Positions 2,761-49,256 of a stretch of 64,000 nucleotides of DNA are shown in pieces. Every line of letters begins with the position of its first letter. Position 1 is the first letter of the stretch. A model generated the notes under the pieces. The model ran no database searches. It saw only the letters and a program-made list of their open reading frames with translations, and was not told the origin of the DNA. This DNA is from Macrostomum lignano (lineage: Eukaryota). Made by a program: the position numbers and the translations under genes. Where the stretch lies: NCBI GenBank assembly GCA_002269645.1, contig NIVC01000245.1:693989-757988 (forward strand). The letters are read 5' to 3'.

Positions 2761-3394
2761 TGGAATTGGCTAGTCCAATATACTAAAAATGGTCTGTCTG
2801 TGTCTATCTATCTATCTATGTGATCGATTAGAGAAAAAATGGCTGGACCGATTTTGTTCGAACTTGCACTGTTCGATCAGAAATTTTCCCGTGACTGTAC
2901 AGGCTAAGAAATTGCTCGATGCTAAAGGCATTAAATATTCGAAAAACATGCTTTTTTGCAAAGGTCAAGCAAACTTTTCGACTTGAAATGCATTGTAAGA
3001 ATGCTAGAGAAAAAACTGACTGGTTGAATTCTGATTCTGAAATAGATTGCATCATAACTGAATTGTAACTCCGACTTGAATTGAAAATGCAGTTTGGAAG
3101 CGTAGCACCAGACTTGATTTAAATTGCGTAACCATGCATATTGTTAACTGATACTGACTGACTGAGAAATTGATTATGTCATAACTGCTTCGTGTGATTT
3201 ACTCTATGCTTGGATTTTAAAGTGTTGAATTATATAAGTGCAAAATTTGATGTTATCAAAACGATGAGAGCTAGCCTAGAGGTGAACAAACTGAACTGCT
3301 AAATGCAGCAACGATGGTTCGAATTTTCATAGAGTATAATTTTTTTAATTAAAGCTTTTCAACGTCAGGAAAACTAAAAGACTTTTTAAAAAGA

Positions 3395-5585
3395 AGCGTC
3401 ATGTAATGAATCATAGAAGCGTCATGTAAACAATCATAGAAGCGTCATGTAAACAATCATAGAAGCGTCATGTAAAAAATCATAGAAGCGTCATTTAAAA
3501 ATCATAGAAGCGTCATGTAAACAATCATACAAGCGTCATGTAAACAATCATAGAAGCGTCATGTAAAAAATCATAGAAGCGTCATGTAAACAATCATAGA
3601 AGCGTCATGTATACAATCATAGAAGCGTCATGTAAAAAATCATAGAAGCGTCATGTAAAAAATCATAGAAGCGTCATGTAAAAAATCATAGAAGCGTCAT
3701 GTAAAAAATCATAGAAGCGTCATGTAAACAATCATGGAAGCGTCATTTAAAAAATCATAAAAGCGTCATTTAAAAAATCATAGAAGCGTCATGTAATGAA
3801 TCATAGAAGCGTCATATAAACAATCATAGAAGCGTCATGTAAACAATCATAGAAGCGTCATGTAAACAATCATAGAAGCGTCATGTAAACAATCATAGAA
3901 GCGTCATGTAAACAATCATAGAAGCGTCATGTAAACAATCATAGAAGCGTCATGTATACAATCATAGAAGCGCCATGTAAAAAATCAAAGAAGCGTCATG
4001 TAAACAATCATAGAAGCGTCATGAAAACAATCATAGAAGCGCCATGTAAAAAATCATAGAAGCGTCATGTAAACAATCATAGAAGCGTCATGAAAACAAT
4101 CATAGAAGCGTCATGTAAAAAATCGTAGCAGCGTCATGTAAAAAATCATAGAAGCGTCATGTAAAAAGTCATAGAAGCGTCATGTAAAAAATCATAGAAG
4201 CGTCATGTAAACAATCATGGAAGCGTCATTTAAAAAATCATAAAAGCGTCATTTAAAAAATCATAGAAGCGTCATGTAATGAATCATAGAAGCGTCATAT
4301 AAACAATCATAGAAGCGTCATATTAAAATCATAGTAGCGTCATATAAACAATCATAGAAGCGTCATGTAAACAATCATAGAAGCGTCATATAAACAATCA
4401 TAGAAGCGTCATGTAAACAATCATAGAAGCGTCATGTAAACAATCATAGAAGCGTCATGTAAACAATCATAGAAGCGTCATGTATACAATCATAGAAGCG
4501 CCATGTAAAAAATCATAGAAGCGTCATGTAAACAATCATAGAAGCGTCATGAAAGCAATCATAGAAGCGCCATGTAAAAAATCAAAGAAGCGTCATGTAA
4601 ACAATCATAGAAGCGTCATGAAAACAATCATAGAAGCGTCATGTAAAAAATCGTAGCAGCGTCATGTAAAAAATCATTGAAGCGTCATGTAAACAATCAT
4701 AGAAGCGTCATGTAAGAAATCATAGAAGCGTCATGTATACAATCATAGAAGCGTCATGTAAAAAATCATAGAAGCGTCATGTAAAAAATCATAGAAGCGT
4801 CATGTAAACAATCATAGAAGCGTCATGTAAACAATCATAGAAGCGTCATGTAAACAATCATAGAAGCGTCATGTAAAAAATCATAGAAGCGTCATGTAAA
4901 CAATCATAGAAGCGTCATGTAAACAATCATAGAAGCGTCATGAAAACAATCATAGAAGCGCCATGTAAAAAATCGTAGAAGCGTTATATAAAAATCATAA
5001 AAGCGTCATTTTTGAAAAATCATAGAAGCGTCATGTAAAAAATTGTAGCAGCGTCATGTAAAAAATCATAGAAGCGTCATGTAAACAATTATAGAAGCGT
5101 CATGTAAAAAATCATAGAAGCGTCATTTAGAAATTATAGAAGCGTCATGTAAACAATCATAGAAGCGTCATGTAAAAAATCATAGAAGCGTCATGTAAAC
5201 AATCATAGAAGCGTCATGTAAACAATCATAGAAGCGTCATTTAAAAATCATAGAAGCGTCATGTAAACAATCATAGAAGCGTCATGTAAACAATCATAGA
5301 AGCGTCATGTAAAAAATCGTAGAAGCGTCATTTAAAAATCATAGAAGCGTCATGTAAACAATCATAGAAGCGTCATGTAAACAATCATAGAAGCGCCATG
5401 TAAACAATCATAGAAGCGTCATGTAAACAATCATAGAAGCGTCATGTAAAAAATCATAGAAGCGTCATTTAAAAATCATAGAAGCGTCATGTAAACAATC
5501 ATAGAAGCGTCATGTAAAAAACTAATGAAAGTGTCTTTTAAAAAATTAAGAAGCATCATGGTAGAATAAAAGAAGCGTCATGTCA
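3395..5585. repeat. 23-bp minisatellite (GTCATGTAAACAATCATAGAAGC)n
   Basis: Roughly 95 direct tandem units with no unique spacers. Confidence 0.97.
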
Positions 5586-8011: not shown

Positions 8012-8296
8012 CTACCAATCACTATCACTGTCACTGATGTCGTTCTTTCTGTCTGGCCCGGCACTGTTGCACTCCACATATTCACCGTTAAATGCCATAC
8101 ACTTCAGATAGCGTTCGATCAGATTGTCAAACCCAGCCTTCCAGAAGCTGGAGTCCAGCTGGTGCAGCGATGCGTTAGCGGCGTCAATGACCTCCTGACG
8201 TGTCGTGAAAACTTGCCCACGCATTGGCAACTTTATTGGACCGAAGAGATGGAAGTCGGCAATCGCGAGGTCGGGGCTGTAGGCTGGGTGACTTAG
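8012..8296 (-). pseudogene. Mariner transposase, C-terminal part
   Basis: Reads SHPAYSPDLAIADFHLFGPIK...RYLKCMAFNGEYVE (mariner YSPDL motif and third catalytic Asp). Confidence 0.9.
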
Positions 8297-9372
8297 TGTA
8301 GAGTGTTCTACCTCCCGTAAGAAGACATAAAAGTGTTAATGTACTACTCACACATTTTATTTAGTAGTAAATTGAAGAGCATGAATAAAGGTATGCTTTG
8401 AACTATAAGTATATTCGGACTAACCAATAGGAAGAGAGAGACCTCGAGCATGCTAATTTTAGAAATCACCCAATCACGTGCGACCAACAACTGTCAATTC
8501 AAACCCCACCTTCAAGTCATCATTTTGTTTGCACTCGGGTTGCACCCGGATGAACCAATCAAAGTCTACCAGCTACGGTAACCAATCATGCGCTTTTACA
8601 GTAGACTAGTTGCGCAACTTTCTACCCTGTCATGCTTGACAGCCACCGAATCGTGACCCTTTGACATTTGCGAAGACAGTGATGTACGACCTCGAGAGAG
8701 GTCTGAACGCCTATAAATACAAGTGGTCCGGAACGGACCCGGAGCCAGAAAATCTCCAAGGGAGAGAAGCTCCGAAGAGGAAGCTCTAGTGAAGCCTTCC
8801 TGAAGAAACTCGCGTCGTGGACGAGTTCTTGCGGTAAGCCTTACTCATTTGCGCCCGTTGGTTGAGACGTCTCGCTCAAGTCTATTGAGACTTGAGTTTA
8901 TTTGAGTCTGCTGAGACTCTTGAGTCTGTTTAGACTCCACTGGTTGCAGTCTCCAGAAGGACTGCCCCTGATAGATCTTAGAAGACTATCAGTGGTTTCC
9001 GGAGCCATACCTAGAGTGCATAGAGGCACTACTAGAAGGAGTAGGCTTATATTAAACCGCAGTTTGGCGCAGGGATCCCCATTGTTAATTTGGAAGCTTC
9101 CGATTGGTCCGAACTACAGATACCGGCCGGCAAGAAGTCAAGAGGACAAAGGAGATAACGGACCAGATCAACTGTTACCAGGTGCCTAAACTTCCTGAAG
9201 GACAGGAAAGTTACTGATCGCGATACTACGGACGAGGATTATTACGAGAGCTCTCATTTAAGGACTCAAAGGTAATTGAATACCTTCATTTGATTACTGG
9301 GTTGCCTAGCTACAGAGCTAGAAGTGATTGTTCCTTGATTACAGTTGAGGACTGGTAATAAGGAACACATCA
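8297..9372 (+). repeat. 5' LTR (1076 bp)
   Basis: TGTAGAGTG...ACACATCA. Matches 17927-19002 at a constant offset of 9630; one mismatch found by eye (8837 A vs 18467 G). Confidence 0.97.
8712..8719 (+). promoter_or_regulatory. Candidate LTR TATA box
   Basis: TATAAATA in the expected U3 position; motif only. Confidence 0.55.
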
Positions 9373-9374
9373 AT

Positions 9375-9392
9375 TGGTGATCTCGCCCTCTC
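9375..9392 (+). promoter_or_regulatory. Primer-binding site (TGGTGATCTCGCC...)
   Basis: TGG starts 2 nt after the LTR end. TGGTGA resembles a tRNA-Trp-type PBS, but the tRNA identity is not established. Confidence 0.7.
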
Positions 9393-10068
9393 GGCACTAC
9401 TCAAACTTTTGAGCAATAGCCTGGCCAAGCTATTGTAAAGTGACGAAAGAGCGACTTAATTAATTTTGCGCGCACGTGTTAGAGGTAACACTTTTCGACA
9501 CTTTTCGATTTTTGTACGATTTGAAACTCGAGTAAAAGCTTAGGTATACAGGCTTGAGTACCTGTCAATTTTGAGTAACGTTTGAGCACGCGTGTTAAAT
9601 TTTTGTTTTTATCGAGCTCGAGCAAGAGTAAACCTTAAACAAAACCGAAAACAACGTCCGGTACACTGAAAACAAACCGAAAAATAATCAATACACACTA
9701 AAACAAAACCGAAATTAAAAACACTTGACGAAAGCTAAAACAAACCGAAATTTGATAAAACGTGACAAGGCACGTCACGAAGACAAGAAAGGCCTTTGAA
9801 AAAAGCAAGAAGCAGCTGCACTTCAAGCACTTTAAAGATACACTTTGCGGGACGCCGCATAAGTGCGAAAATCAGCCAGCGAATAAGAGGTCAGAAAAAG
9901 CAGCCAAAAGCCGAATTCCGCTCAAGGTCAGACATAACAAATTGAGGTGTCAAAAGCACCGCAAGACAATCAGTTACAACCGAAGTTTATTTCGAAAGAA
10001 ACACCACACTGGAAGATCCATTACAAATCGACCCAGACCTAGAGCTACCGTTCTATCCCATCAACAAC

Positions 10069-11529
10069 ATGGCGCGGCGCAATCCAACGGTGCACAGAGA
10101 TATCAAAGAGACAGTTGGCACCTTTTCTATGGAAAAAGACTTTAACACCTTTGTTGATCATTTTGACCTGGTATGTAGGGAATACAACCTACAAAATCCA
10201 GAAAAAGCGCAACTGTTGCCACCACTCCTCCAAGGCACTGCACGAGAGATTTATGGTAAACTAGATGCGGCAACACAGCAAAACTACCCAGCATTAATCA
10301 TTCAACTGCGCGCGCATTTCAACCGCTGTGGCACAAACAGATCAGTGCTACTGCACAAGTTGCATAACAGAAGGATGCAGCCAACCGAATCCTTCCTGAC
10401 CTTTGTGGACGACATCCGTCAGATAATTAAGGCACTGCATCAGCCAACACTGCCAGCTGCAGACCAACCACCTCTGGGTGCGGCAGAATTAGCCGCTAGA
10501 GAGCGACAGCGATTGATGGATCGCGAACAAAATCTGATTCTGCACGTAATAAACAATGCACAGCCGTCACTCCGAGATAGACTTCTACGCGAAAACATTG
10601 AAACCGAGGAAGACCTTTTACGGTGCGGAATGCAGTGGGAAGCAAGCGCTCCACTAATGACAACCGGCAACACAGAAGTGCAGAAACTGACACAGCAACT
10701 AAACAAACTGATGCAACATCAAACAGCCGTTATCGCCGAACAAAAAAGACGAAATGAACGAGCCCAAGCCAGATGCTATTACTGTGGACGAGAAGGACAC
10801 TACCAAATACATTGTCCTCATCGGTCAACAAGAAATGACATGCAGCGACAGCCATTCAACAGAAGGAAGCCGCAAAAACCATGGCAACAACATCAAAATT
10901 GGCAGCAGCAAAACACGAAACGCTTCGGAAACAATGGCTACAGACCGCGAAACACCAGATACATGCCCAAGCAACCAACGCAAGCGATGCAACGATATGC
11001 AAACGCCATCACGTACACACCGGAAAGCGAACAGCAAGAGCAGCAAGTCTTCACGATAGACGACTTAGAAATGGACTTCACTATCAATGAAATCGACTGG
11101 CTCGATGCGGAGAGCAGCGAAAAGACAAAAAACATCAGCATGGTCGAAATGAAAGAAACTAACATTGACAGCGAAGAAGAAAAGACAGAAGTGAGCACAG
11201 AAAAAACATTGTCAAGCGACATCAGTGAAAGAAAAGAAGAAACAAACAAAGGCAACGACAAAGAACTGGCAACGAAGGATGACAACGAAAGAAGCAACGA
11301 CGGAAATACAGAGATGGAAGAAGAACAGCAAGAAGAAAGCAGCGATCACGATTATGAGATGCAGAATGACGCTGATGACAACCAAGCCGCCGACAAAGAA
11401 CATGAAGACGGAAGGCACAAAGGAATGGAAGAAAGAAATCTAAGCTCCGACAGCGATCAATGCTACGAGATCCGCTATAAACGAAATGGTGAAGCCTACA
11501 TCAAACGGTCGACTACAAGGCCGAAGTGA
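10069..11529 (+). CDS. gag: Gag (capsid region, CCHC zinc knuckle) followed by an acidic low-complexity linker
   Basis: CYYCGREGHYQIHC (CX2CX4HX4C) at 10774-10815, retrotransposon-Gag-like N-terminal region, and an E/D-rich C-terminal segment that continues in another frame at 11526-11765. Confidence 0.9.
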   Translation: MARRNPTVHRDIKETVGTFSMEKDFNTFVDHFDLVCREYNLQNPEKAQLLPPLLQGTAREIYGKLDAATQQNYPALIIQLRAHFNRCGTNRSVLLHKLHNRRMQPTESFLTFVDDIRQIIKALHQPTLPAADQPPLGAAELAARERQRLMDREQNLILHVINNAQPSLRDRLLRENIETEEDLLRCGMQWEASAPLMTTGNTEVQKLTQQLNKLMQHQTAVIAEQKRRNERAQARCYYCGREGHYQIHCPHRSTRNDMQRQPFNRRKPQKPWQQHQNWQQQNTKRFGNNGYRPRNTRYMPKQPTQAMQRYANAITYTPESEQQEQQVFTIDDLEMDFTINEIDWLDAESSEKTKNISMVEMKETNIDSEEEKTEVSTEKTLSSDISERKEETNKGNDKELATKDDNERSNDGNTEMEEEQQEESSDHDYEMQNDADDNQAADKEHEDGRHKGMEERNLSSDSDQCYEIRYKRNGEAYIKRSTTRPK

Positions 11530-11734
11530 GGTACCGCAGACAATGGAGTGACACAACTACAACATCGGAAGAAAGCAAGGAAGAAAATGATGAAGACGAC
11601 AAGCAGCGGAACGAATCGGATGCCTTGCGCTCGGAAACGCCAATGGAACAAGAGGAAGAATACGATGCGGACGTAGAAGATAACGAATGGCAGCCGCAGC
11701 CAATGCCAGCAAAGACAACGGCAACGTTCAGAAA

Positions 11735-13650
11735 ATGGCGATCTGGATATTCTGGATCATCATAATACTACTGACGGCAGTAGTCACCAAAGCAACAGCA
11801 ATGGAAAACCAATGATATGTCCAACGGATGCGCATATCCAACCGATGATCTACAAGATACCAACCGACATCAAATGCAGCTACTTCAAGACAAATCAGAC
11901 GAAGCCAAAGAAGATCACAATTGATCTCTACAAAGCTAACATCAAGAAGCATCGACAACTCGGAATAGTGTGCTTTAGAGACAAGCACCTAGTGGAAAAA
12001 GTTTGGCGAGGACAATGGAACAGAATTCGATTTTGGCAACACGAACTACATGTGTCGCACGCTGAATGTCTACAATGGAACCAAACACTGTTCTCAAAGG
12101 ATGGTCAGCTAGAACCGGATGAGAAAGTGGGGGAGGCACAACTTTACCGAACGAAAACTCAGCAAACGGACGATATGTACACTTTTCGGAAGCATGGACT
12201 AACTACATGACACGAAACAGTTACCTAATCAGGAATATTCCATTCTACCACAATCCTTTTGAAAAAATGGAGTCGCTACAACTGCAATTAAGTGACTGCC
12301 GATACAGCAAAGGATGGTGTCCAACGCCGATACTGCGGAATGAGGAACTATACAGCTTACCGTTGAGTCCAACATATCATCAAGACTATCGATGGCAAAT
12401 AATACGCAGAGGCGACTCACGATATGAAGAACCATCTAAGTCACGACAATACTTCTTCGCGTGGGAAGTTGAGCCGGAAATTGACTGCAAGCTTCAAAAG
12501 TATCACACAGTTGAAGGAGGTCTACTGTCAAACACGTTTTTGGCAAAGTCAGGAGACTTGGCACTGACGTTTCAAAAGAAACCAGTCGAGCAAAAACTGA
12601 AATGCAAGGATACAGACAAGACACTATTCATCTCGGAACAAGAGATACCAGTCTACGTAAAAGAAGACGACAAACAAACCTTTCTGGCGATCATCAACGG
12701 AACGTATCAACAGCAGGAACAACAGAACAGACGACGACGAGACATCGAACGTCCCAAACTGGTGTCAAACCGACTACTGTCAGCAAAGATAACGGCTTTG
12801 GATCACAATCTACACAACCAGTTAAACCACTTGCATCGAACACTGGTCCAGCTAACTTGCAAAATGCACGCAATCAACTTAAATTATGCCAGACAAAACT
12901 ACTATGTCAACCCTACGATGACTTTTCGTAAAATCACCGGAATGACGAACGTTTTGGCAGTTCCAATATACGAGCATCTGTTGATATACAAGTGCACGCC
13001 GATACAGCACTTTAACATCTTGCCGTCGAACACGTCAACAACCTGCTACGACAAGCCAAGGATTGAAGCGTTCTACGAAGGAAAACGAATTCAGGATTCT
13101 TGGACACGGTACACAACATCATAGTTGGCACCGCAATACCGAGACCCTGCACCACGGCAGCAAACTACTATCAACTGGACAATGCACTACACGTCATCAA
13201 AACAACTGGAACGACAGCAAACATCACAGAACCGGAAGTAATCGTCGACGAAAACTACGACATGGAGGATTTGAAAATCCGATTCAACAGAACGAAGTAT
13301 ACGCCATTCGCCGATATCCAACTTGACGAGATAACACCAGGATGGACGATCAACGACTTCTTGCAAGCGTTCATCACCCAACGCAAGATGATTCACCAGC
13401 TGTTCACAAGAAAGGACAAAGGAACCGGGACAGGAAGATTTCCCGTCCTTGTTTCAATGGACAGCGCCATCAAATCATTTTGGACAAACAGCTTCTGGGA
13501 GCTGCTCAATGGAAGAGGCAGTCTCTATCAAGGATTCATCTTCTACGGTGCTTGCATTGTGTGGATTGTCACGGCAATCTTCATCATTTCGTCGATCGTA
13601 CGGTGCTTCAGTCAAACTTGTCCAAGAGCTAAGAAGACAGTTAATGCCAT
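11735..13650 (+). CDS. env: Envelope-like glycoprotein, herpesvirus gB/class III fusogen-like (split over four frames)
   Basis: Signal-like MAIWIFWIIIILLTAVVTKATA (11735-11800), Cys-containing ectodomain with N-x-S/T sites, furin-type RRRR (12729-12740), a gB-like C-x17-NP...V-x-A...C...CY-x2-P segment, and TM GFIFYGACIVWIVTAIFIISSIV (13532-13600). The fold assignment is from motif memory. Confidence 0.75.
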
Positions 13651-13849
13651 AATGCAAAGAACGACAACGGAAGGCGACAACAGTTTAGAACTAACAGAAA
13701 CTGCACATCGTGAGGTTCAAGGGCAACCGACACTAGCAACGCGGCTATATCCATCGATTCCGACAACACCAACGGCACCAAGAATACAACCACCCAACTA
13801 TCAAGCAGAACAGCAAGACCCAAAATGGCCAGAGAACTACGTATGTACT

Positions 13850-16800
13850 CTACACGCCGAAATTGGCAAAGCCATGGCTCAAGTGGTAATCAACAATCTA
13901 CCATGTCGAGCGCTACTCGACTCCGGCAGCTCCATCACAGTTATATCAAAACAACTGTGCAACAAGCTACGACTTGCTCTACGGCCAGCAACAATCGCAG
14001 TTGCAGGAGCAGGAGGACATTCGCTAAACATTCTGGGAAAAGCCGACATTGATTTAAGAATCGCTAATAAACACTTGACAGTTCCAACGTACGTCATCGA
14101 CAGACTCCCAAACCAGGACGTTATTGTTGGCATCGACACGTTCAAGCAGCTTCGACTACCATTGACCTTCGACTTCAATAAGCAAACGTTCAAGATCGAC
14201 TCGGTAGAACAACCATTGATCAACCAGATCCGAGTACTACCAAAAGTAACATTGCAACAAGATGTCATCATCCAACCGGAGAGCGCCTGCTGGATAAAGG
14301 CAAAGGCAACTAACGCAACGGAGGAAGCAATGATATTCGACCCAAACAGAAGAGTCACGGCTAAACACCAAATTATGATGCCTACGGCACTAGTACTGGT
14401 TGCAAAAGATAAACAGCTGCCAGTACAAATATTCAACCCGAACACAGAAACGGTTCATCTACGACAAGGAATGTGCATCGGTCATCTCAACACCCAAGCA
14501 TCGGTTATGCTGATTGAGCAAGCGACTCCACGACTAACAGAGGAAGAATTTCAAAAGAAGATCAATTTGGATGACAGCCCGATTACGGAACAGCAAAAGA
14601 GGAAAGTTCGACAGCTGTTGTGGAAGTACAACGACGCTTTCTGCCACCATGACTACGACATCGGACGAGCCAAGGACATCAAACAGGAAATCAAACTTCT
14701 GCCGCACACGGAACCAATTCAGTGCAAACCGTACCCGATCGCCAAGCATCTGCAACAGCACTTCGATGAGATTATCGACAAAATGCTGAAACACGGCATC
14801 ATCAGCAAAGCCATTTCAGCATACTCATCACCATGTCTCTTGGTACAAAAGAAGGAGACTAACGAAAGACGACTCGTATGTGACTTCAGACTGCTGAACA
14901 AGTACATACCGACGGATCAGCAAAGCCTACCGAAGATCTCCGAACTACTAGCAAAGCTCAACACGGCAAAATTGTTCACAGTGTTCGACCTACGTCATGG
15001 ATTTTGGCAAATTGAAATCGAGAAAGAGTCACGACAGTACACGGCTTTCAAAACCTACAATGGACAAGTATACGAGTACAATCGATCGCCGATGGGACTC
15101 AGCAACAGCCCAGCAACGATGAGCCGACTAACAGCATACATGCTTGCAGGATGCACGAACCTGTTGCACTATGTTGACGACATCTTGGCCTACGGAGAAG
15201 ACTTCGAACGACTCTATGAAGCGACGGAGAAGGCCCTCGCGCTTATCAACGACAAGGTCTTAAGCTACAACCAACTAAATGCAAATTCTTCCGAGACAAC
15301 GTGCGTTACCTGGGACATCAGGTGACAGCCAAAGGAATTTCACCGGACCCAGACAACGTGGATAAAGTGAAAAAGTTTCCTACGCCAACTAGCAAAACGA
15401 AGGTCCAATCATTTCTTGGACTTGCGCAATACTTCCGAAAGTTCTTACCCAACTTCGCGAAGACAGCAAAGCCGCTGTACGACCTGCTCAAGTTCGACAA
15501 ATGGAAGCAGGAGAATTGGACACAAAAGCAACAAGAAAGTTTTGACGAAATCAAACGACAGCTGACATCAGACGCACTGCTACAGCATCCGGACTTCGAC
15601 AAACCCTTCATCATCGAGACAGACGCCTCAGGAACGGGACTCGGAGCAGTCCTACTACAGGAAACTGAAGACAAAAAGGAACGACCTATAGCCTACGTCA
15701 GTCGAGCACTTAAACCGAATGAGACAAAATGGTCAGCTACGGAACGAGAACTACTAGGAGTTCTGTTCGCCCTACGACAGTTTCACTACTACATCTATGG
15801 ATCTCCATTACAGACGATAGTACGCACAGATCATGCACCGCTGACCTACGTCGTAACTACAAAAGGACAAACAAACAACCGACTCATCAGGATGACACTC
15901 AAGATCCAGGACTACAACTACAAGCTCGTCTACAAACCAGGAATTACTAACAAGGCCGCGGACGCCCTGTCAAGAGCCTACGAAGTCAACGCCATTCATC
16001 CAATCCCTAACATCAAGGAATTGGTGGATGAGACTGAACACGACAACTTCTACATAGCAGTTAAAAACAACGACAAGGACATCAAGCTCAGCCCCGTGGA
16101 ACGAAAATTCCTGCGCAAGCAGCGACAACATTTAACAATCAACAAGTCACGACTCTACTGGATGAGTGACAACAAACCTAAAATCTACATGCCATATTCG
16201 TTTAGGCAGGCAATTCTCAACGAGCTGCACGACAACCCACTCGCTGGACACCTGTCGGCAGCCAAAACCATTGCAAGAGTGGAGCAATACTACTTTTGGC
16301 CAAGCATGCATGGCGACATCAAGCAGTATTGCAACAACTGCCACTCATGCGCAGCATCAAAGACAGGACGACGACAAAAACCACAGCTACAATCGATACC
16401 AAAGTCAACAACTATGGACTGTCTCAGCATCGACATCACCGGACCGCTGCCACCGAGCTGTCTCCATGGCATAGCCTACACCTACATCCTAACAGCCTTG
16501 GACATTTTCTCAAAGTTTGCTATTGCCATACCAATACCGGACATCACAGCTCAGACAGTGGCAATGGGTTTCTTCAACGACATCATCTGCAAGTACGGTA
16601 CGCCAAAGAACCTCACATCGGACAATGGATCGCAGTTTACGTCTCAACTCTTTCAGCAAGTGGTGAAGATCCTCAACATCACGCAGATCTACACATCGAC
16701 CTACAATCCGAAGGCGAACATGGTTGAAAGGTTTCACCGCAACCTACACGAGATGATTACACACTTCGCGCATCAACAACCGGACGACTGGATCATCTAT

Positions 16801-17382
16801 CTGCAAGCAGTAACAATGGCCTACAACAGCGCTATTCATCGATCAACGGACAATACGCCATTCTTTCTAATGTTTGGGCGAGACTTCCAGCCGCCAAACC
16901 TATTGGCACAGCAACTACTACCATCGCAATATGTGGAAGTCCCGACGTCCATTCAAAAGTTCGTCACGCAACTACACCTCGCATGGAAAGTAGCCAAGCA
17001 CAACATCGACAATCAGGTGGCTCTAACCACCGGCACCGACACGAGATCGACAACTCTGACAGCCGGCGACATCGTCTACCTGCACTATCCGCCGCAACAG
17101 ACGCACAAACACGCACAGAAGTACAAAGGACCATATCGAGTGGTCCAACTAACGTCATCGACAACGGCACGCCTGGCCAATGTGCAAGATCCTCATCAGC
17201 ACCAATTCTACGTGCACATTCATCGACTAAAAAAGATCAACACTGACACGACAACGTTTTTACCGTCACTAGACAACGCTGATCGCACGCGTTCGGCGAA
17301 CCGCCACATCGCAACAAAACACGAGGAGACACAAACATCAACCGAGAATCAGCAACATGGCTACAATCTGCGACCTCGTTAA
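13850..17382 (+). CDS. pol: Pol: aspartic protease, RT, RNase H, integrase (one -1 break near 15255)
   Basis: LLDSGS (Asp at 13919), RT motifs RLVCDFRLLN, DLRHGFWQI and YVDD (15170-15181), RNase H ETDASGTGLGAVL, integrase HHCC, IDITGP, SDNGSQF, VERFH and C-terminal KGPY. Confidence 0.95.
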
Positions 17383-17493
17383 GTTGCGAAAACAACCCGT
17401 GTAGAGACCGGGTCAGAATAGCTCTACAGCTTCGCAAGCTTGTCGTAAGAGGCGACTAATCTGAGCGACTTCAAACTTCAAGCGACGACGACA

Positions 17494-17787
17494 ATGGGCA
17501 ACGCACTGTCCAAACAGGCGCCCCAACTACAGCAACTCTATGAATGCCCAATATGTTTAACTGATGACTTGGCTGTCAAGCCACCAATTATTTGTGAAAA
17601 CAGACATCGCATATGCGGACAATGTTTAAGCGACTCACATTATATTCAGCTCTGGCAGAATTGCCCGATAGGTAGAAGAGTTTGCGGCAGTGCGCCTATT
17701 GTTAGTCTTGGCGCACATGTCAATACTGTAACCAAAAACATTTCATTTGCATGCGTATACTTACCTTTAAATAACTTTTATAACTAA
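17494..17787 (+). CDS. Accessory ORF: RING-finger (Siah/SINA-like) protein with an N-myristoylation motif
   Basis: Starts MGNALSK; CPIC-x12-C-x3-H-x2-C-x2-C-x12-CPIG (last Cys absent, GGT instead of TGT). Lies between the pol stop and the PPT, inside the element. Confidence 0.7.
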   Translation: MGNALSKQAPQLQQLYECPICLTDDLAVKPPIICENRHRICGQCLSDSHYIQLWQNCPIGRRVCGSAPIVSLGAHVNTVTKNISFACVYLPLNNFYN

Positions 17788-17926
17788 CGCTCTTAACTAC
17801 CCATTACTAAATACCTGTAACACTTGTGACAAAAGATTTTTATAAAGACATGCTCGTACTTTTTATGCGTTTCAATCCTCTATAATTTAAAACTCGGGAC
17901 GAGTTTTTTGTAAACATGGGAGATTT

Positions 17927-19002
17927 TGTAGAGTGTTCTACCTCCCGTAAGAAGACATAAAAGTGTTAATGTACTACTCACACATTTTATTTAGTAGTAA
18001 ATTGAAGAGCATGAATAAAGGTATGCTTTGAACTATAAGTATATTCGGACTAACCAATAGGAAGAGAGAGACCTCGAGCATGCTAATTTTAGAAATCACC
18101 CAATCACGTGCGACCAACAACTGTCAATTCAAACCCCACCTTCAAGTCATCATTTTGTTTGCACTCGGGTTGCACCCGGATGAACCAATCAAAGTCTACC
18201 AGCTACGGTAACCAATCATGCGCTTTTACAGTAGACTAGTTGCGCAACTTTCTACCCTGTCATGCTTGACAGCCACCGAATCGTGACCCTTTGACATTTG
18301 CGAAGACAGTGATGTACGACCTCGAGAGAGGTCTGAACGCCTATAAATACAAGTGGTCCGGAACGGACCCGGAGCCAGAAAATCTCCAAGGGAGAGAAGC
18401 TCCGAAGAGGAAGCTCTAGTGAAGCCTTCCTGAAGAAACTCGCGTCGTGGACGAGTTCTTGCGGTAGGCCTTACTCATTTGCGCCCGTTGGTTGAGACGT
18501 CTCGCTCAAGTCTATTGAGACTTGAGTTTATTTGAGTCTGCTGAGACTCTTGAGTCTGTTTAGACTCCACTGGTTGCAGTCTCCAGAAGGACTGCCCCTG
18601 ATAGATCTTAGAAGACTATCAGTGGTTTCCGGAGCCATACCTAGAGTGCATAGAGGCACTACTAGAAGGAGTAGGCTTATATTAAACCGCAGTTTGGCGC
18701 AGGGATCCCCATTGTTAATTTGGAAGCTTCCGATTGGTCCGAACTACAGATACCGGCCGGCAAGAAGTCAAGAGGACAAAGGAGATAACGGACCAGATCA
18801 ACTGTTACCAGGTGCCTAAACTTCCTGAAGGACAGGAAAGTTACTGATCGCGATACTACGGACGAGGATTATTACGAGAGCTCTCATTTAAGGACTCAAA
18901 GGTAATTGAATACCTTCATTTGATTACTGGGTTGCCTAGCTACAGAGCTAGAAGTGATTGTTCCTTGATTACAGTTGAGGACTGGTAATAAGGAACACAT
19001 CA
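17927..19002 (+). repeat. 3' LTR (1076 bp)
   Basis: Direct repeat of 8297-9372, preceded by a short purine tract (GGGAGA, 17918-17923). Confidence 0.97.
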
Positions 19003-19849
19003 TTAGCTGACGAAAGCCCAGCTCTTCCACCTTGGCGCGAGTGCGAGCAGCGGCATGCGGACGCGCGTTGTCCCAAAGGATGAACGGCTTCTGACGCATG
19101 ATTCGGCGCTTGGATAGAAAGGCAGCACGCAGTTGCTCGAGCTGGTTAATCACATAGTCGGCATTGATTGTCTGGCCCTGCGGCAGGTAGTCGACGAGTA
19201 GCATGCCTCGCGCATTGAACCACACTGCACATGATGTTCTGGGTCCAGGCCGACTTCATGGCCTTTGTGTGTGGGTGCCGTCCCTTTGGCCCCCACTGCA
19301 TCGACTGCTGCTTTGTCAGTGGATTAAACATTGCAGCGGCGTCTCGTCCATTGTGATTACAAGCTCCTTGAACTTCTCATCACCAAGCTCGTTCCAGACA
19401 GCCCAGTTGTCTGCCGAACATCGCACCCGTGCTTTTTTGTGTTCTTCTGTCAGCTCTCGTGGCACCCACTTAGCGCAAATCTTCGACCAGCCGTGGCGTT
19501 ATAGAATGCGACTCACAGACAAGCAGTGAACGCCGCACACACTCTCCACTTCACGCACACATGCAGATGGGTTTGCCTCCAAATATTGGAGCACGGCAGC
19601 CGCATTGTTGTCACCTGTGCTGGAACGCGGACGGCCAGAGCGAGCAGCATCAGCGACGCTTGTTTGACCATCAGTAGCAAGTCAATGGTGGGCAAACACC
19701 TGTGTGCGACCCAACGCATAATCACCGAAAGAAGTGCAAACTTCGTTAAAAGTCTGCGTTGGTGTCTTACCCATGTGCTGACATGCCATAATAAAGCAAC
19801 GTTGACTTTCTTTCGAATCAAAATCTGAGTGATTTTTTGGTCGGCTCAT
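19003..19849 (-). pseudogene. Mariner transposase, N-terminal part (frameshifted)
   Basis: Starts MSRPKN; contains CAKWVPRELT (WVPHEL motif), VITMDET (first Asp) and ILWDNARPH (second Asp). Joined across the TTAG TSD it reads FRQL-SHPAYSPDL, with 34 residues between the second and third Asp. Confidence 0.9.
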
Positions 19850-21284: not shown

Positions 21285-23010
21285 CTAGCTTTGCAACCAA
21301 AGTTCATGTCTCAAAGTTGAGTTTCGTCCCTTCATTAACTTTCGTTGATCGATAGCCGAAGTCGCAGCCGAGCTGCAGGCGATCAGACAGTCGTGAAGGA
21401 GTTCAACAGCTTCCAGCATGGTCAGCAGCGAGCAGCCAAGGTACAGACCGAGTAATCCACCTGTGTCAGCAATCAGGTCGATAAAACTATACGACTTCTC
21501 AATGAGAACTGCTGAGCCGAGACTCTTGCCGGTGTACACTCGAATTCGCATCATTTGGTCTTGCAAGTAATTCGAGCCGACAACTATATTGCGGGTGGTC
21601 AAGTTATTCAGCAAGCTATTGGTTATGTTCAAGACTTCATCATAGCCAGGAAAGTGCGCAGCGGGATTTTCTAGCCTTTTCTCCTGAACGCGATACTGAA
21701 ACCCGGCTAGAAGGTCGCGCTGAAAAGCGGAAAAGACTCGTGGCCAGTTGCTAAACGAGTAGGCGTACTTGAAACGGTCCGTCTGACAAGGCCGAAGTTT
21801 GGCGCAGTATTGATGAATGGCATTCTGATAATTCCAATATAAAGCTGGGTTGTTTTCTTTGAAAAACTGTTCAGCCGACGCCTGACCTGTGAGAACGCGG
21901 CTGGCATTCGAGCAGCTTCGAGCGTGGATAAACTTCCGATCGCGAGGTAACAGGTGACTCACACAGCCGCTTTGCTGCATCATGAGCTGGTTACTTCGTT
22001 CGGCCCGACAAAGGTACTCGCTAAATGCATAGGCCGTCTCGGTGTGATCGTACGGACTGATGATGCGACTGGGCTCAGGGCTACTCGAGCACTGCATTCC
22101 TTTGCCAGAATGAGCCTCTCATCTCGAGGTCGATTCGATAGTCTTTTCCAGCGCTGAGCTGAATCATGGACTCGGAGTCCGGATAGTGACCAGGTCGAAC
22201 GAAATAAAGGTTTACACCAGATGCAGTCTCGGGTTTAATGCCATTCTCAAAGTCCCATGAAAGAAAGCTCAGCTTTGATGTGTTTATTGTTGCAATCGGC
22301 AGTAGTGACGATTTTTTTGGGAATTCAAAAAATGCACCATCCAAAAATAGTGTCATCTCTAAATAGCTGCCCTGATTGCTCAGCTCTGGTCGCTGCGATG
22401 GCGTGGGCACCAGGCGAATGCAGTTAAGGTCCCTAAAGCTGTGAAACGGTATTTCCCCAACTGGTGCTTTTGGCGAGCCGTTCAAGATCAGCATGAAAAG
22501 AAACTGCTTCATATGATGACCCAGTTTGTCGCTTATAAGGCGAAATGGCATTGTGGATAGAAGAATGCTTGCCAACCTGGCTGCATCAAAAAAATTTTTA
22601 GGTGACCCACCAAAGGCTAAAGTAAGACTTTTGACATAGCTGTTTATTTCGGCTGTGCTGTTGGGATCCAGGATGTACGGATAACTCCCTGACATGATGG
22701 CATTGTTGCAGATGACCAGATCGGGGAACTCGAACTCCACCGAGTTCTGCTGCAGCGTGGTGGTCTCTGGCTGCTCGTTGTAGGTTTTGATGAAGCTCTG
22801 CACCTGTGTGACAAAGCCGGTGAGGCAGAGCGCGAAGCCGACAAGCCAGATGACCTTGACGTAGATCGGACGGGACCCCACGAGTCTTCCGAGGCCGTGA
22901 GCCGTGGTGTCGCTCAGCCATGAGTGCACAGGGTGCGATAGAATCTCCTTGATTCCTTTCCGTTGACAGCCTGGATTCGTTGATTCGACAACTTGCTGTT
23001 CTTCTGTCAT
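21285..23010 (-). CDS. DEG/ENaC (amiloride-sensitive channel family) subunit, copy A; intronless, with an apparent frameshift near 22110
   Basis: TTAHG pre-TM1 motif, TM1, FPDLVICN, Cys-rich region, IADTGGLLGLYLGCSLLTMLE (TM2 with GxS filter). The break equals two 1-nt homopolymer deletions relative to copy B. Start codon uncertain. Confidence 0.9.
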
Positions 23011-33600: not shown

Positions 33601-35096
33601 TCGAGCCAACTTCAACAAACGGCTGTACAGAAGGACTCGAAGTGTTCAGCCGATAAAACCTGTTGCTTTTGGCTTCAAATTTGGTAGAATTTGAGCTGCC
33701 GCCGCAGGAGAGGAGGGTGCCGGAGTCCAATAGGCCTTGACAGACAGACTGAGCTCGAGAGTGACTGTCCGTCTGGCTGACTGATGCTGACGCTTCAGAC
33801 GATGTCAGTTGAAGGTATTCAATAGCAGCAGTGTGCAGCTGCTTGCCTGAACGTTTCAGATCAGTTTGAATTGAGGGAAACAGGCAGCCAAGGAGCTGCT
33901 TCCACTGGCGAGTGGCTCTGAACTGCTGCTGGCTTCCTGTGGATGAAGGACGACGGTTTTAATAACTGCAATATGTATCGGCTTCCCCAGTGTCAGCTGT
34001 TAGTGTTAGATAGGAATGTGTCAGCTGTTAGATAGCAATGTGTCAGCTGTTAGATAGCAATGTGTCAGCTGTTAGATAGGAATGTGTCAGCTGTTAGTGT
34101 TAGATAGGAATGTGTCAGCTGTTAGAAAGGAATGTGTCAGCTGTTAGATAGCAATGTGTCAGCTGTTAGATAGGAATGTGTCAGCTGTTAGATAGGAATG
34201 TGTCAGCTGTTAGATAGCAATGTGTCAGCTGTTAGATAGCAATGTGTCAGCTGTTAGATAGCAATGTGTCAGCTGTTACATAGCAATGTGTCAGCTGTTA
34301 GATAGCAATGTGTCAGCTGTTAGATATCAATGTGTCAGCTGTTAGATAGGAATTTGTCAGCTGTTAGATAGCAATGTGTCAGCTGTTAGATAGGAATGTG
34401 TCAGCTGTTAGATAGGAATGTGTCAGTTGTTAGATAGCAATGTGTCAGCTGTTAGATAGCAATGTGTCAGCTGTTAGATAGCAATGTGTCAGCTGTTAGA
34501 AAGCAATGTGTCAGCTGTTACATAGCAATGTGTCAGCTGTTAGATAGCAATGTGTCAGCTGTTAGATATCAATGTGTCAGCTGTTAGATAGGAATTTGTC
34601 AGCTGTTAGATAGCAATGTGTCAGCTGTTAGATAGGAATGTGTCAGCTGTTAGATAGGAATGTGTCAGTTGTTAGATAGCAATGTGTCAGCTGTTAGATA
34701 GCAATGTGTCAGCTGTTAGATAGCAATGTGTCAGCTGTTAGAAAGCAATGTGTCAGCTGTTACATAGCAATGTGTCAGCTGTTAGATAGCAATGTGTCAG
34801 CTGTTAGATATCAATGTGTCAGCTGTTAGATAGGAATTTGTCAGCTGTTAGATAGCAATGCGCAGCTGTTAGATAGGAATGTGTCAGTTGTTAGGCAGCA
34901 AAACCAATTTACACAGGTATTTATTCTCATAAAATAATGTTACCTGTTCGACCTGTTACATGTTAGATGTTGAGATAATTGTAAACTGACAGAAATCCCA
35001 ATGAAAGGAGAAAATTCACTCACGAAGTCCTGAACTGGGTGCCTCGGAGGAGGCATTGTAAGAGGCTTCAAAATCAGTCTGTCCGATTGTGAACAT
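30636..35096 (-). CDS. DEP-domain protein, DEPDC7/DEPDC1 (LET-99) family; about 5 exons
   Basis: Exon 35024-35096 joins in phase to the exon starting at 33936. FRATRQW and SVCQGLLD...FYRL (DEP-like), LQRLLRLIDLPVIDEL and terminal QFRVHHPDLFRKHF resemble DEPDC7 as I recall it. Some internal junctions are uncertain or frameshifted. Confidence 0.7.
31165..31446 (+). mobile_element. tRNA-derived SINE, copy 2 (intronic, antisense to the DEPDC7-like gene)
   Basis: TTGACCCAGTGG A-box-like and GGCTCGATTTC B-box-like motifs; homologous to 831-1203. Confidence 0.8.
32990..33500. repeat. 20-bp minisatellite (GAGTTTGGCGCCCCTCTAAT)n, intronic
   Basis: Direct tandem units. Confidence 0.95.
34000..34890. 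repeat. 22-bp minisatellite (TGTCAGCTGTTAGATAGCAATG)n, intronic
   Basis: Direct tandem units with a higher-order repeat of variant units. Confidence 0.95.
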
Positions 35097-38250: not shown

Positions 38251-38539
38251 ACTCGCTGAATAATATTAGCCATGCTCTTACTGTGCTACTAGTCAGTAAG
38301 CTATTGAAAAAAATCAAATAAAGTTTTGATTGTTCCTGAGATAAACAATAGCTCTATTAATTGTTAATGATTTATTTTTTCATATGTTCCAATTCTTTTC
38401 CCTATTTTTCATCTGTAATAGCAAGAAAATGATATTTTAAAGCATTAAAGTACATTTGATTTTATGAGCTGAAGTACTGTAAAAATAAAATATACAAATT
38501 TAGCTTCATTCCTGTCATTCTCTTTTTGTTGCTCTCTTG

Positions 38540-39600
38540 ACTCTCTCACACTTTTCCTGTCACTCTCTTCCCGGTCCTCTTTTCCCGTCACCGTCCTTAT
38601 CGTCACTCTCTTTCCGTCACTCTCTTCCCGTCACTCTCTTCCCGGTCCTCTTTTCCCGTCACCGTCCTTGTCGTCACTCCCTTTCCGTCACTCTCTTCCC
38701 GTCACTCTTTTCCCGTCACTCTCTTCCCGTCACTCTTTTCCCGTCGCACTCTTTCCGTCACACTCTTCCCGTGCCTCTCTTCCCGTCACCGTCCTTATCG
38801 TCACTCTCTTTCCGTCACTCTCTTCCCGTCACTCTCTTCCCGGTCCTCTTTTCCCGTCACCGTCCTTGTCGTCACTCCCTTTCCGTCACTCTCTTCCCGT
38901 CACTCTTTTCCCGTCACTCTCTTCCCGTCACTCTTTTCCCGTCGCACTCTTTCCGTCACACTCTTCCCGTGCCTCTCTTCCCGTCACTCTCTTCCCGTCA
39001 CTCTCTTCCCGTCACTCTCTTCCCGTCACTCTCTTCCCGTCACTCTCTTCCCGTCACTCTCTTCCTGTCACTCTCTTCCCGTCACTCTCTTCCCGTCACT
39101 CTCTTCCCGTCACTCTCTTCCCGTCACTCTCTTCCCGTCACTCTCTTCCCGGTCCTCTTTTCCCGTCACCGTCCTTGTCGTCACTCTCTTCCCGTCACTC
39201 TCTTCCTGTCACTCTCTTCCCGTCACTCTCTTCCCGTCACTCTCTTCCCGTCACTCTCTTCCCGTCACTCTCTTCCCGTCACTCTCTTCCCGGTCCTCTT
39301 TTCCCGTCACCGTCCTTGTCGTCACTCTCTTCCCGTCACTCTCTTCCCTTCACTCTTTTCCCGTCACTCTCTTCCCGTCACTCTTTACCCATCACTCTCT
39401 TCCCGTCACTCTCTTCCCGTCACACTCTTCCCGTCACTCTCTTCCCGTCACTCTCTTCCCTTCACACTCTTTCCTTCACACTCTTCCCGTCACTTTACCT
39501 GTCACTATCTTCCTGGCACTCTCTTCCTTTCACGCATTACCTGTCACTCTCATTCACTCTCATCCTGTCCCTCTCACTCTCTCCAGCTGTCATCCTGCCT
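38540..39600. repeat. 14-bp pyrimidine-rich minisatellite (TTCCCGTCACTCTC)n
   Basis: Direct tandem units; accounts for the repetitive ORFs at 38537 and 38668. Confidence 0.95.
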
Positions 39601-40617
39601 CTGAAAATTGGAGCCCTCAGGTTCGGGCAGGAACAGGGCCAATATTTGATCATTTTTCATTAGCAGCTCGGCTTGAATAATTTTACCCTTGCGAGTCAAC
39701 TGAAGGCGTCGCACAAACGAATGCACTTTGCTCAAGTAGCTGCAGTCGGTTCTCATATGGTTGAAGTACTTGAACAAGCAGTTGGATTGGAAGTCTCTAC
39801 CATAGACAGCCGTGAGGAACTGGTCCGGCTGGTTGGGCGCCGGCAGTAAGTACGGGCCGAACGGACGAACTCGCAAAGGATAAACGTAGTCAATGGGAAA
39901 CTTCCGCGGAGCTTCCTGTCTGTCATAAACGCGTCCTTTCACTCTGCCGAAAAAGAAGTCCACAATTGTTTTGCACTGTTTTCTCGCGCTGAGATTTTGG
40001 CCAACTAATCCGCATAGGATGCCCAACTGCCAATGCTGGTTTGTCAGTTCGGTGTCTATGAAGTTGAACTGCTCCGATTTGGACAGATTTACCAAGAATT
40101 GACGAACTAATGGCTTCTGATTATACTGAATCATAAAATCGATGTCGGCGTCCCAGGGGATGAAGCCGAGGTGTCGCCAGGATCCCAGCAAGCTGCCGCC
40201 AGCTAGAAACAGTTCGAGGCCCATCTGGCTGAAGTTCGAGTGCAACTGATGCACAATGCGATAGATATGACTCTGCTCATCGGTGCTCAACAGACTCAAC
40301 CGGTGTAGTTCCATGGCTGTAGGATTTTTCACTGCATCACTGCCGATTAGTTTTTGCAGACAGGCCGCACCGACTGACTTCGGTTTGCTCAGCCTAACAT
40401 AGATCGGCGCTGACAGATGGAGAACAGAGTCTTCTATACGAAATTTCAATAGCAAATCACTGAGACACAATGCGCTCGAGGCCAAAACGCTATGGGAGTC
40501 TTGAGATTGTGTCCTTGAGCTGCTTCTCAGAGTGAAAACTATCGAGAAGGCAAAACAGACGGCAGCCAATAAGAAATACGAATTAGCCCGACGTCTGTTT
40601 GGCAGTTTACTCAGCAT
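39574..40617 (-). CDS. LicD/fukutin-family nucleotidyltransferase-fold protein, type II membrane, intronless (347 aa)
   Basis: N-terminal TM (YFLLAAVCFAFSIVFTL) and LAGGSLLGSWRHLGFIPWDADIDF, matching the LicD GTLLG-x-RH-x-GFIPWDxDxD signature. Confidence 0.85.
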   Translation of the reverse strand: MLSKLPNRRRANSYFLLAAVCFAFSIVFTLRSSSRTQSQDSHSVLASSALCLSDLLLKFRIEDSVLHLSAPIYVRLSKPKSVGAACLQKLIGSDAVKNPTAMELHRLSLLSTDEQSHIYRIVHQLHSNFSQMGLELFLAGGSLLGSWRHLGFIPWDADIDFMIQYNQKPLVRQFLVNLSKSEQFNFIDTELTNQHWQLGILCGLVGQNLSARKQCKTIVDFFFGRVKGRVYDRQEAPRKFPIDYVYPLRVRPFGPYLLPAPNQPDQFLTAVYGRDFQSNCLFKYFNHMRTDCSYLSKVHSFVRRLQLTRKGKIIQAELLMKNDQILALFLPEPEGSNFQRQDDSWRE

Positions 40618-41004
40618 TCTGCGGTTTCTTGCAAATCTACTTTGGTGTCATTTTTTAATCAATCCACTCGCAAATGTTTCTGGCATCGCAATGTCACTAA
40701 TAGTCTTACAGTGAAAATGACAAAGGGAAGGCCTTTTCAGGGCGCAGTCACTTCCATGGTCTTTCCAGACAGTTGCTGTTTTGATGCGGTTGACGGGATC
40801 TGCTCGAGCAATGGGAAAAATGTGTTGCTACAGATGTAGACTGCGTTGAGAAGGCTGCCTTGCTTCCCAATACAAAATTTGTTTTTATAGAAACAAAACA
40901 ATCGCCTTTTATCATCGTATATTCGTTTCATGGTTCATTTCTGTTTGTCTTTACCGTCTCGTGATCTAAGATTTGAAGATATTTTGTCTTGAACAAACTT
41001 AGTA

Positions 41005-41555
41005 TCTTAGTGCCTTAGAGTCTTAGTGCCTTAGTGTCTTAGTGACTTAGTATCTTATTGTCTAAGTGTCTCAGTGACTTGGTGTCTTAGTGTCTTATTG
41101 TCTCAGTGACTTAGTATCTTATTGTCTAAGTGTCTCAGTGACTTGGTGTCTTAGTGTCTTATTGTCTCAGTGACTTTATAGTATCTTAGTGTCCTAGTGC
41201 CTTAGTGTGTTATTGACTTAATGTCTTAGTGACTTTTTATCTTAGTGTCTTAGTGTCTCAATGACTTAGTGTCTTAGTGACTTTTTATCTTAGTGTCTTA
41301 ATGTTTCAATGACTTAGTGTCTTAGTATCTTACTGCATTACTGATTTAGTATCTTAGTGTCTTAGTTACTTTATGTCTTAGTGTCTTAGCCTCTTAGTGA
41401 CTTAGTGTCTTAGCCTCTTAGTGACTTAGTGTCTTAGCCTCTTAGTGACTTAGTGTCTTAGCCTCTTAGTGACTTAGTGTCTTAGCCTCTTCGTGACTTA
41501 GTGTCTTAGCCTCTTAGTGACTTATTGTCTTAGCCTTTTAGTGACTTAGTGTCTT
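41005..41555. repeat. TTAGTG-core satellite (8-bp and 24-bp periodicity)
   Basis: TTAGTGTC and TTAGTGTCTTAGCCTCTTAGTGAC units. Confidence 0.9.
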
Positions 41556-42097
41556 TAGCGTCTTATTTAGTATTTTGGCCCCGCGATGACATCAGCAGTG
41601 GTTACTATAGACTTACTATAAGACACCTAAGCAATCTGAGTCAAGCTAACTATAGACATAAAATACCTCAAGTCACTTACCGTTTTAAAGTCACTTCAGC
41701 TACATGCATTTCAGACCAAGACCAGCAAATTTTGTTGATTAAGGTGCAAAATGCACTTTATTATATCAAGCAATAAAGTAAAATTAGCATATTTTAAACC
41801 CCATTAGCTATATTTAATTCTTAAATTAAATATTACAACTTTAGAGACTAGATTTTAACAGATGTTATAACTTTGACAACAAGTCTACAAATTTTGTGCA
41901 TTAACAAGCATAGCTAAGCCAGCAACAACCGACTGTAACAGTTTTGAATTTGGCACACAGAACGCGATCTGTAGTGACGCCTTCGATCAACGGAGAGTTG
42001 CCAATTTACCCCTGCAGTGTTTACAATCAAGTTTATAATTCTGATTATCTGCAAATGTAGCTACAGCTTACTTTTAATAAGTCAACAAATCTGCGTC

Positions 42098-42915
42098 TAC
42101 TAAGTCACTAATGCACTAAGCCACTAATGCACTAAGTCACTAATGTACTAAGCCACTAATACACTAAGTTACTAATGCACTAAGCCACTAATACACTAAG
42201 TCACTAATGCACTAAGTCACTAATGCACTAAGCCACTAATGCACTAAGTCACTAATGCACTAAGTCACTAATGCACTAAGCCACTAATGTACTAAGCTAT
42301 TAATGTACTAAGTCACTAATGCACTAAGCCACTAATGCACTAAGTAACTAATGCACTAATGCACTAAGCCACTAATACACTAAGTCACTAATGCACTAAG
42401 CCACTAATACACTAAGTCACTAATGCACCAAGTAACTAATTCACTAATGCACTAAGCCACTAATACACTAAGTCACTAATGCACTAAGTCACTAATGCAC
42501 TAAGCCACTAATGCACTAAGTCACTAATGCACTAAGTCACTAATGCACAAAGTCACTAATGCACTAAGTCACTAATGCACTAAGTCACTAATGCACAAAG
42601 TCACTAATGCACTAAGTCACTAATGTACTAAGCCACTAATGTACTAAGCCACTAATGTACTTAGCCACTAATGCACTTAGCCACTAATGCACTAAGCCAC
42701 TAATGCACTAAGCCACTAATGCACTAAGCCACTAATGTACTAAGCCACTAATGTACTTAGCCACTAATGCACTAAGCCACTAATGCACTAAGCCACTAAT
42801 GTACTAAGCCACTAATGCACTAAGCCACTAATGCACTAAGCTACTAATGTACTAAGTCACTAATGCACTAAGCCACTAAAAGTCACTAATACACTAATGC
42901 ACTAAGTCACTAATG
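42098..42915. repeat. 16-bp satellite (CACTAATGCACTAAGY)n, i.e. TTAGTG core on the minus strand
   Basis: Direct tandem units, opposite in orientation to the 41005-41555 array. Confidence 0.93.
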
Positions 42916-43435: not shown

Positions 43436-43825
<390 letters not shown>

Positions 43826-44778: not shown

Positions 44779-44871
44779 AGTACAGCTAGCATTACTAATA
44801 TTTATTGTTAATGTTACCACTTCGTCATGCTAACGAGTAGTCAAATTGCTTAGAATTAAAAACTATTCCAG

Positions 44872-49256
<4,385 letters not shown>

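Follow-up and report, generated by a model that had tools for sequence, protein, structure and literature searches.

To understand why a retrotransposon of the flatworm Macrostomum lignano carries three classes of viral late-domain motif between its Env anchor and its protease, we analysed a 64,000-nucleotide stretch of this genome (the window), the element within it and the relatives of that element. The 19-codon stretch LYPSIPTTPTAPRIQPPNY, encoded at window positions 13745-13801 (+), contains LYPSI (13745-13759), PTAP (13769-13780) and PPNY (13790-13801), all on the forward strand. By their form these are a putative ALIX-type YPx[LI] motif, a putative TSG101-type motif and a putative NEDD4-WW-type PPxY motif, and they match the late-domain patterns P[TS]AP, YPXnL and PPxY, with Ile in LYPSI in place of the canonical final Leu. 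The R with which the initial annotation opened its string lies at 13742, just outside this interval. That annotation had placed the three motifs within 19 residues between the Env transmembrane segment and the protease, and both the coordinates and the reading frame bear this out: the anchor, the motifs and the protease LLDSG (13913-13927) share one open frame of 752 codons, which opens in the last part of the Env ectodomain and continues through the anchor into protease and reverse transcriptase (RT). The cluster starts 52 residues past the anchor and stops 37 residues ahead of LLDSG, within a predicted cytosolic tail, or Env-protease linker, of 76 amino acids (13601-13828, +). The annotation was also right that Gag has no such cluster; Gag holds only a lone YPAL (approximately 10285-10296), which is not preceded by a hydrophobic residue and which the next lineage does not have.

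The element that carries the cluster is a Ty3/gypsy LTR retrotransposon at 8297-19002. Its 5' LTR (8297-9372, +; 1,076 nt, TG...CA) is preceded by a TTAG target-site duplication at 8293-8296, and its 3' LTR (17927-19002, +) is followed by the same duplication at 19003-19006. The two LTRs differ at 1 of 1,076 nt, so the insertion is very young. The Gag piece (10069-11529, +) comprises a capsid-like region, a CCHC knuckle and a long acidic spacer and includes the lone YPAL already mentioned, and its first Met is followed by Ala, which leaves it with no Gly2 myristoylation signal. Env (11677-13531, +) has an internal signal or first hydrophobic segment, a gB-type (class III) ectodomain and an RRRR furin-type site, and ends in a membrane anchor (13532-13588, +; 19-residue mean hydropathy 2.4). 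A Trp-Pro pair (13826-13831, +), kept in nine of nine lineages and lying 29-36 residues ahead of the catalytic motif in all of them, is what we take to be the N-terminal cut site of the protease, on the model of aromatic-Pro retroviral sites. Pol (13829-17382, +) follows in Ty3/gypsy order as protease, RT, RNase H and integrase, with one frame break in the window copy. The primer-binding site (PBS; 9375-9386, +) is the reverse complement of the PBS given for Platyhelminthes_Rhabditophora_Mlig_errantivirus_2 in the supplement of PMC13524379. We found no tRNA genes in the window.

Frame shifts split the window copy into five or more pieces, the breaks falling at the Gag-Env junction, in Env and in RT; the Env frame, broken here, is open in other copies. 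An uninterrupted frame of 2,538 residues was found at 4 of 150 scored matches, and diverged lineages have uninterrupted frames of 2,458-2,866 residues. Such copies encode, in a single chain, Gag with its CCHC knuckle, the first hydrophobic segment and the ectodomain with its furin-type site, followed by the anchor, the linker and Pol. In uninterrupted copies Gag, Env and Pol are thus one polyprotein, and before cleavage the motifs are part of the entire precursor. Env lies between Gag and Pol and is flanked by hydrophobic segments on both sides, the arrangement that marks GAG-ENV-POL elements. An Env profile built from 45 sequences matched Epstein-Barr virus (EBV) gB (E = 1.5e-15), and a predicted model of a natural Env copy (pLDDT 77) matched herpes simplex virus (HSV)-1 gB in Foldseek (E = 3.3e-21); over the whole chain, TM-scores were low, at 0.23-0.34 among the matches shown. 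On these comparisons and this predicted fold, the Env ectodomain is gB-like, that is, class III.

We considered whether the cluster could have arisen by chance in a Pro-rich linker, or could be conserved as RNA rather than as protein. Short motifs are common in Pro-rich sequence, and PPxY has a roughly 2.5% chance of occurring in any one tail. When the five natural frame pieces of the element were shuffled in 80-residue blocks, a three-motif cluster appeared in 1 of 20,000 shuffles, with loose motif definitions and a cluster span of up to 25 residues. Shuffling a 30-residue Pro-rich patch alone produced such a cluster 37 times in 500,000, and shuffling the 76-residue tail produced none in 200,000.

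Variation among copies bears on the same question. Within lineage A, to which the window element belongs, we compared tail sequences that form 21 distinct haplotypes at the nucleotide level, drawn from 62 locus records at about 40 distinct places (counted by hand). Seven of 69 lineage-A locus records had been left out for a frame break in the tail, five of which still contain all three motifs, and L020 was unmatched. None of the 10 motif-defining positions varied, against 35 of the 66 other tail positions (Fisher p = 0.0012), so that the motifs are kept against a variable linker, the outcome on which the initial annotation had staked its reading. Seven synonymous variants occur within the ten motif codons. 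The wildcard positions, by contrast with the motif-defining ones, are variable in the protein: x is N, T, I or G in PPxY and S or L in YPxI, and the residue leading the latter is L or M. Because synonymous variants are present and wildcards vary, the constraint acts on the protein motif and not on an RNA signal. This pattern of substitution indicates that LYPSI, PTAP and PPNY are under protein-level selection in lineage A.

Protein searches of the genome identified nine Env-bearing lineages in three deep clades, between which RT is 37-44% identical and the tails are approximately 20-35% alike; lineage H was grouped with F and G because their tails are 45-51% identical. An RT tree restricted to in-genome sequences separated the Env-bearing lineages from env-less elements with support of 96/96, subject to long-branch warnings. 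Three of its 24 rows, which did not have the whole RT stretch, were left out, and row L102_H was ignored because its RT comes from an env-less element that is nested. An env-less Gypsy pol at L102:7779-8849 lies in or beside the lineage-H element and is apparently nested. P[TS]AP occurred in eight of nine lineage tails, where 0.24 would be expected, and [LIMV]YPx[LI] occurred in seven of nine, where 0.04 would be; neither count was attained in any of 100,000 joint shuffles. The first position of the latter pattern was widened to [LIMV] after the data had been seen; with [LM] only, four of nine lineages have it. These shuffle counts overstate independence, because the lineages share ancestry and amount to three deep comparisons rather than nine. 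Across the remaining 16,712 residues outside the tails, P[TS]AP occurred once and [LIMV]YPx[LI] not at all.

The motifs are arranged differently from lineage to lineage. YPxI precedes PTAP in lineage A, and PTAP or PSAP precedes YPx[LI] in B, E, G and H; C and D have PSAP only, F has LYPKI only and one B1 copy has PNAP. Every tail motif lies within 40 residues of the Trp-Pro pair. PPxY was found in the tail of lineage A alone, one of nine, which is the level expected by chance. The conservation across family members that the initial annotation proposed as a check therefore holds for P[TS]AP and YPx[LI], in eight and seven of the nine lineages, and fails for tail PPxY. Taken together, the shuffle tests, the enrichment across lineages and, as described below, in remote relatives, and the synonymous changes within motif codons have already largely refuted the chance or RNA reading for PTAP and YPx[LI], and we regard it as scarcely credible; in its favour is the PPxY motif, unenriched across the nine lineages.

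PPxY also occurs on the N-terminal side of the first hydrophobic segment in B1, B2 and C, where lineage E has a second PSAP. In other lineages the spacer that leads from the zinc knuckle to that segment has PPxY, YPPI or PSAP, at L114 residue 590, L064 residue 121, L066 residues 495-518 and L074 residue 580. These spacer motifs suggest that both predicted cytosolic flanks of Env are able to carry motifs. As controls we used 17 env-less loci of the genome, in 16 of which a protease motif was found (L085 had no protease match). In the 1,500 nt upstream of that motif, PTAP or YPx[LI] was found in 0 of the 16 loci; PPxY was present in some frame 870-1,115 nt upstream in three controls. The proposal in the initial annotation that ESCRT function had moved to Env from Gag is not borne out by these comparisons: the 16 env-less controls have neither PTAP nor YPx[LI] in those 1,500 nt, and other lineages have PPxY or PSAP in the Gag-Env spacer.

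To look beyond this genome, we used a search of 1.84 billion proteins, of whose 218 hits the best 150 were analysed. Among these 150, 76 hits from outside the family matched the Env profile; 27 had no detected anchor or a short tail and were dropped, leaving 49 tails, and five own-family hits were excluded. At least one motif was present in 15 of the 49 tails from the best 150 of 218 hits, against 1.58 expected (P[TS]AP in 5, YPx[LI]-type in 5, PPxY in 8), and none of the three in the other 34. Three tails of this set had two motifs (0.02 expected), and 0 of 3,000 shuffles reached the motif counts. Restricting the first position of YPx[LI] to [LM] left two of the 49 tails (again from the best 150 of 218), which are 60% alike in Env. 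A first pass over the same best 150 hits had found a motif in 12 of 43 tails, and in that first-pass set the ectodomain and Pol control regions showed no significant motif enrichment. A species label was found on 2 of 19 remote motif-bearing proteins looked up, both from nematodes. A word-indexed homolog search returned only two same-family proteins, and a public protein that is 94% identical is labelled Macrostomum lignano.

These data also bear on whether the tyrosine motif might instead be an AP-2 endocytosis signal (YxxPhi), with the prolines forming an SH3-type ligand or a flexible linker that aids dimerisation or release of the protease, and no involvement of ESCRT. YxxPhi signals are frequent in viral glycoprotein tails, YPSI fits the pattern, and the motifs always lie within 40 residues of the Trp-Pro pair that precedes the protease. 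However, Pro occupies the position after Tyr in all seven in-genome lineages that have the motif, and in the 49 remote tails (best 150 of 218 hits) neither non-Pro YxxPhi (21 versus 19.7 expected) nor dileucine (6 versus 4.6 expected) was enriched. Permuted decoy tetrapeptides occurred 0-2 times each in the 43 first-pass tails (best 150 of 218 hits), compared with 5 for P[TS]AP and 6 for PPxY. The env-less controls, which have the same type of protease, do not have the motifs either. We consider this explanation improbable.

The reading that we favour, and judge to be probably correct, is that the motifs are late domains of a membrane-anchored polyprotein, through which TSG101, ALIX and a NEDD4-type ligase are recruited so that enveloped particles can be pinched off. 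Late domains are position-independent and often combined (PMC7995964). With two hydrophobic segments, the ectodomain would be luminal, and Gag before it, like the linker and Pol after it, would be cytosolic; hydropathy and the in-frame Pol thus predict that the linker motifs lie on the cytosolic side of Env. The cytosolic placement made in the initial annotation therefore stands as a prediction for a gB-type Env, with the amendment that until cleavage the motifs sit on the whole Gag-Env-Pol precursor and not on Env alone. With no myristoylation signal on Gag, it would fall to Env itself to keep the precursor at the membrane. Clustering precursors would display PTAP to the TSG101 UEV domain, LYPSI to the ALIX V domain and PPNY to WW domains at the bud neck, and the displayed motifs would bring in ESCRT-III and VPS4, either at the plasma membrane or for budding into endosomes. 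Cleavage by the protease at Trp-Pro would follow, and the motifs would remain within the particle as the last part of the Env tail. In this way the linker would be a functional counterpart of human immunodeficiency virus (HIV) p6, which also lies just ahead of the protease. In HIV, delayed ESCRT recruitment lets the protease free the enzymes before budding is complete, according to PMC4900648; this effect suggests why redundant motifs might be retained next to the protease in a precursor whose every chain includes Pol.

The same motifs could instead bind ESCRT or NEDD4 factors for the traffic of Env, either sorting it into multivesicular bodies (MVBs) and exosomes or sending it to lysosomes and so keeping the fusogen off the cell surface. 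The conservation results fit this equally well, and there are precedents in the available text of two sources: the P(S/T)AP motif of the E-cadherin tail leads to extracellular vesicles through TSG101 with no virion involved (PMC9511404), and HSV gB is ubiquitylated and sorted to MVB membranes (PMC7995964). On the other hand, Env is here in one chain with Gag and Pol, so that sorting would carry capsid and enzymes along unless the chain were cut first, and PTAP and YPx[LI] repeatedly occur together, whichever comes first, as is the pattern of viral late domains. This trafficking role is the main rival to the favoured reading, and we think it unlikely.

If the motifs do act as late domains in particle scission, they may reflect a wider strategy, which we put forward only tentatively, in which the Gag-Env-Pol elements of flatworms and nematodes bud matrix-free: a gB-type fusogen would thread the polyprotein through the membrane, and swappable late domains in its tail would call ESCRT. 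This would be the first sequence evidence of ESCRT-made enveloped particles in non-insect errantiviruses, and the late domains would have arisen independently of those in retroviral Gag. Enveloped budding of non-insect env-bearing Ty3/gypsy elements has so far been argued mostly from intact Env genes; selected motifs on the predicted cytosolic side of Env would be independent evidence for an enveloped stage and name host proteins to test. They also suggest how an element with neither a matrix domain nor a myristoylated Gag might reach and leave the membrane.

The type of element itself is already known. The accessible text of PMC13524379 describes GAG-ENV-POL errantiviruses with a gB-type Env from nematodes, bryozoans and flatworms, and these include an element from the same species, Mlig_errantivirus_2, whose 12-nt PBS is identical to that of the window element. 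Both those errantiviruses and the window element have the Ty3/gypsy Pol order, a gB-type Env between Gag and Pol and many near-identical copies. The LTR span given there for Mlig_errantivirus_2 is approximately 865 nt, compared with 1,076 nt in the window element, a difference that suggests the same family or a sister subfamily, as judged from listed features rather than from sequence. Nematode Gag-Env-Pol elements were reported by Sacco et al. 2022, as cited in the accessible text of PMC13524379. Burro, a group of giant gypsy-like planarian elements, likewise has gag, env and pol, in that order and in the same frame, within a single ORF but differs in its giant size and other accessory domains, a likeness drawn from its description in the available portion of PMC6431247, which says nothing on late domains.

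The motif combination has its closest counterparts in retroviral Gag. According to the accessible text of PMC8402826 and PMC7995964, murine leukaemia virus (MLV) Gag (PSAP, LYPAL, PPPY), HIV-1 p6 (PTAP, YPXnL) and HERV-K combine the same motif classes, and all three late domains occur together in the Gag of MLV and HERV-K (PMC8402826). The p6 motifs, like those of the window element, stand just before the protease. Retroviral motifs, however, are in soluble Gag, whereas those of the window element, known from sequence alone, follow a membrane anchor in a non-retroviral Gag-Env-Pol chain. Precedents for late domains outside Gag or matrix are two viral membrane proteins, bluetongue virus NS3 (PSAP and PPxY; PMC7995964) and classical swine fever virus (CSFV) E2 (YPXnL; PMC11980558); these belong to unrelated viruses, have one or two motif classes and are not part of a capsid-fusogen-polymerase polyprotein. 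In foamy viruses, Env supplies the membrane targeting that is missing from Gag and has a type II leader peptide (PMC7828637), but it is Gag that carries their late domain (PSAP; PMC8402826), and their Env is a protein of its own. A 2012 review gave ESCRT use by errantiviruses as unknown in its available text (PMC3383448), and the main text of PMC13524379 contains no occurrence of 'late domain', 'ESCRT', 'PPxY', 'cytoplasmic', 'tail' or 'budding'. In the literature searched, which lay outside subscription journals, we met no account of late domains placed between Env and the protease in Gag-Env-Pol elements, and the placement of the motifs is apparently undescribed there.

The genome encodes candidates for the host domains that the favoured late-domain reading calls for. 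A TSG101 UEV domain is found at three places; its pocket keeps Y68, N69, V89, T92 and M95, and relative to human it has His for Tyr63 and Val for Phe142. An ALIX V domain is present with the equivalent of F676 kept. The residue numbers of both pockets are those that we take to be the standard ones. WW domains gave 87 matches in the genome. A predicted complex of the host UEV with a 37-residue piece of the tail, modelled on its own, scored 0.19 against a mark of 0.34 and was counted neither for nor against binding.

A 99-nt in-frame GT...AG stretch at 13710-13808 spans all three motifs, and the public gene model P0001 omits precisely the 33-residue block that holds them, in agreement with 13710-13808. 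Contigs from 4 of 24 runs (three guessed to be RNA and one of unknown type) showed no joint at 13710-13808 or across Env, and one contig continues through the motifs to 13815. None of the runs is recorded as RNA, and expression was given no weight as evidence. Splicing out of the motif block is therefore unsupported by the contigs of these four runs rather than excluded, since contigs drop rare forms.

RING proteins are encoded by one or two accessory ORFs that lie downstream of pol and ahead of the 3' LTR. That of the window copy (17494-17787, +) is short; in some other copies a double-RING protein of approximately 220 residues is encoded, as seen in lineages A and B (L082:8545-9210, L064:8549-9214 and L114:8600-9920). 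None was found by pattern in the stretches examined of lineages C-H. Pfam RING matches were weak to moderate, and the nearest Atlas clusters were viral RING proteins, a weak likeness (0.90-0.91). The first accessory ORF of lineage A starts with MGNALSK, a Gly2/Ser6 myristoylation-type sequence, and by its sequence the double-RING protein is possibly a membrane-bound E3 ligase.

Elsewhere in the window, the element sits inside sequence whose frames, at 8012-8335 (-) and 18896-19529, seem to resemble a mariner-type transposase, and a frame at 21285-22118 (-) seems to resemble a degenerin/ENaC channel in its C-terminal part. Numerous minisatellite arrays, whose repeat units measure 8, 9, 14, 21, 22 and 23 nt, occur at approximately 3300-5000, 33900-34900 and 38500-49000.
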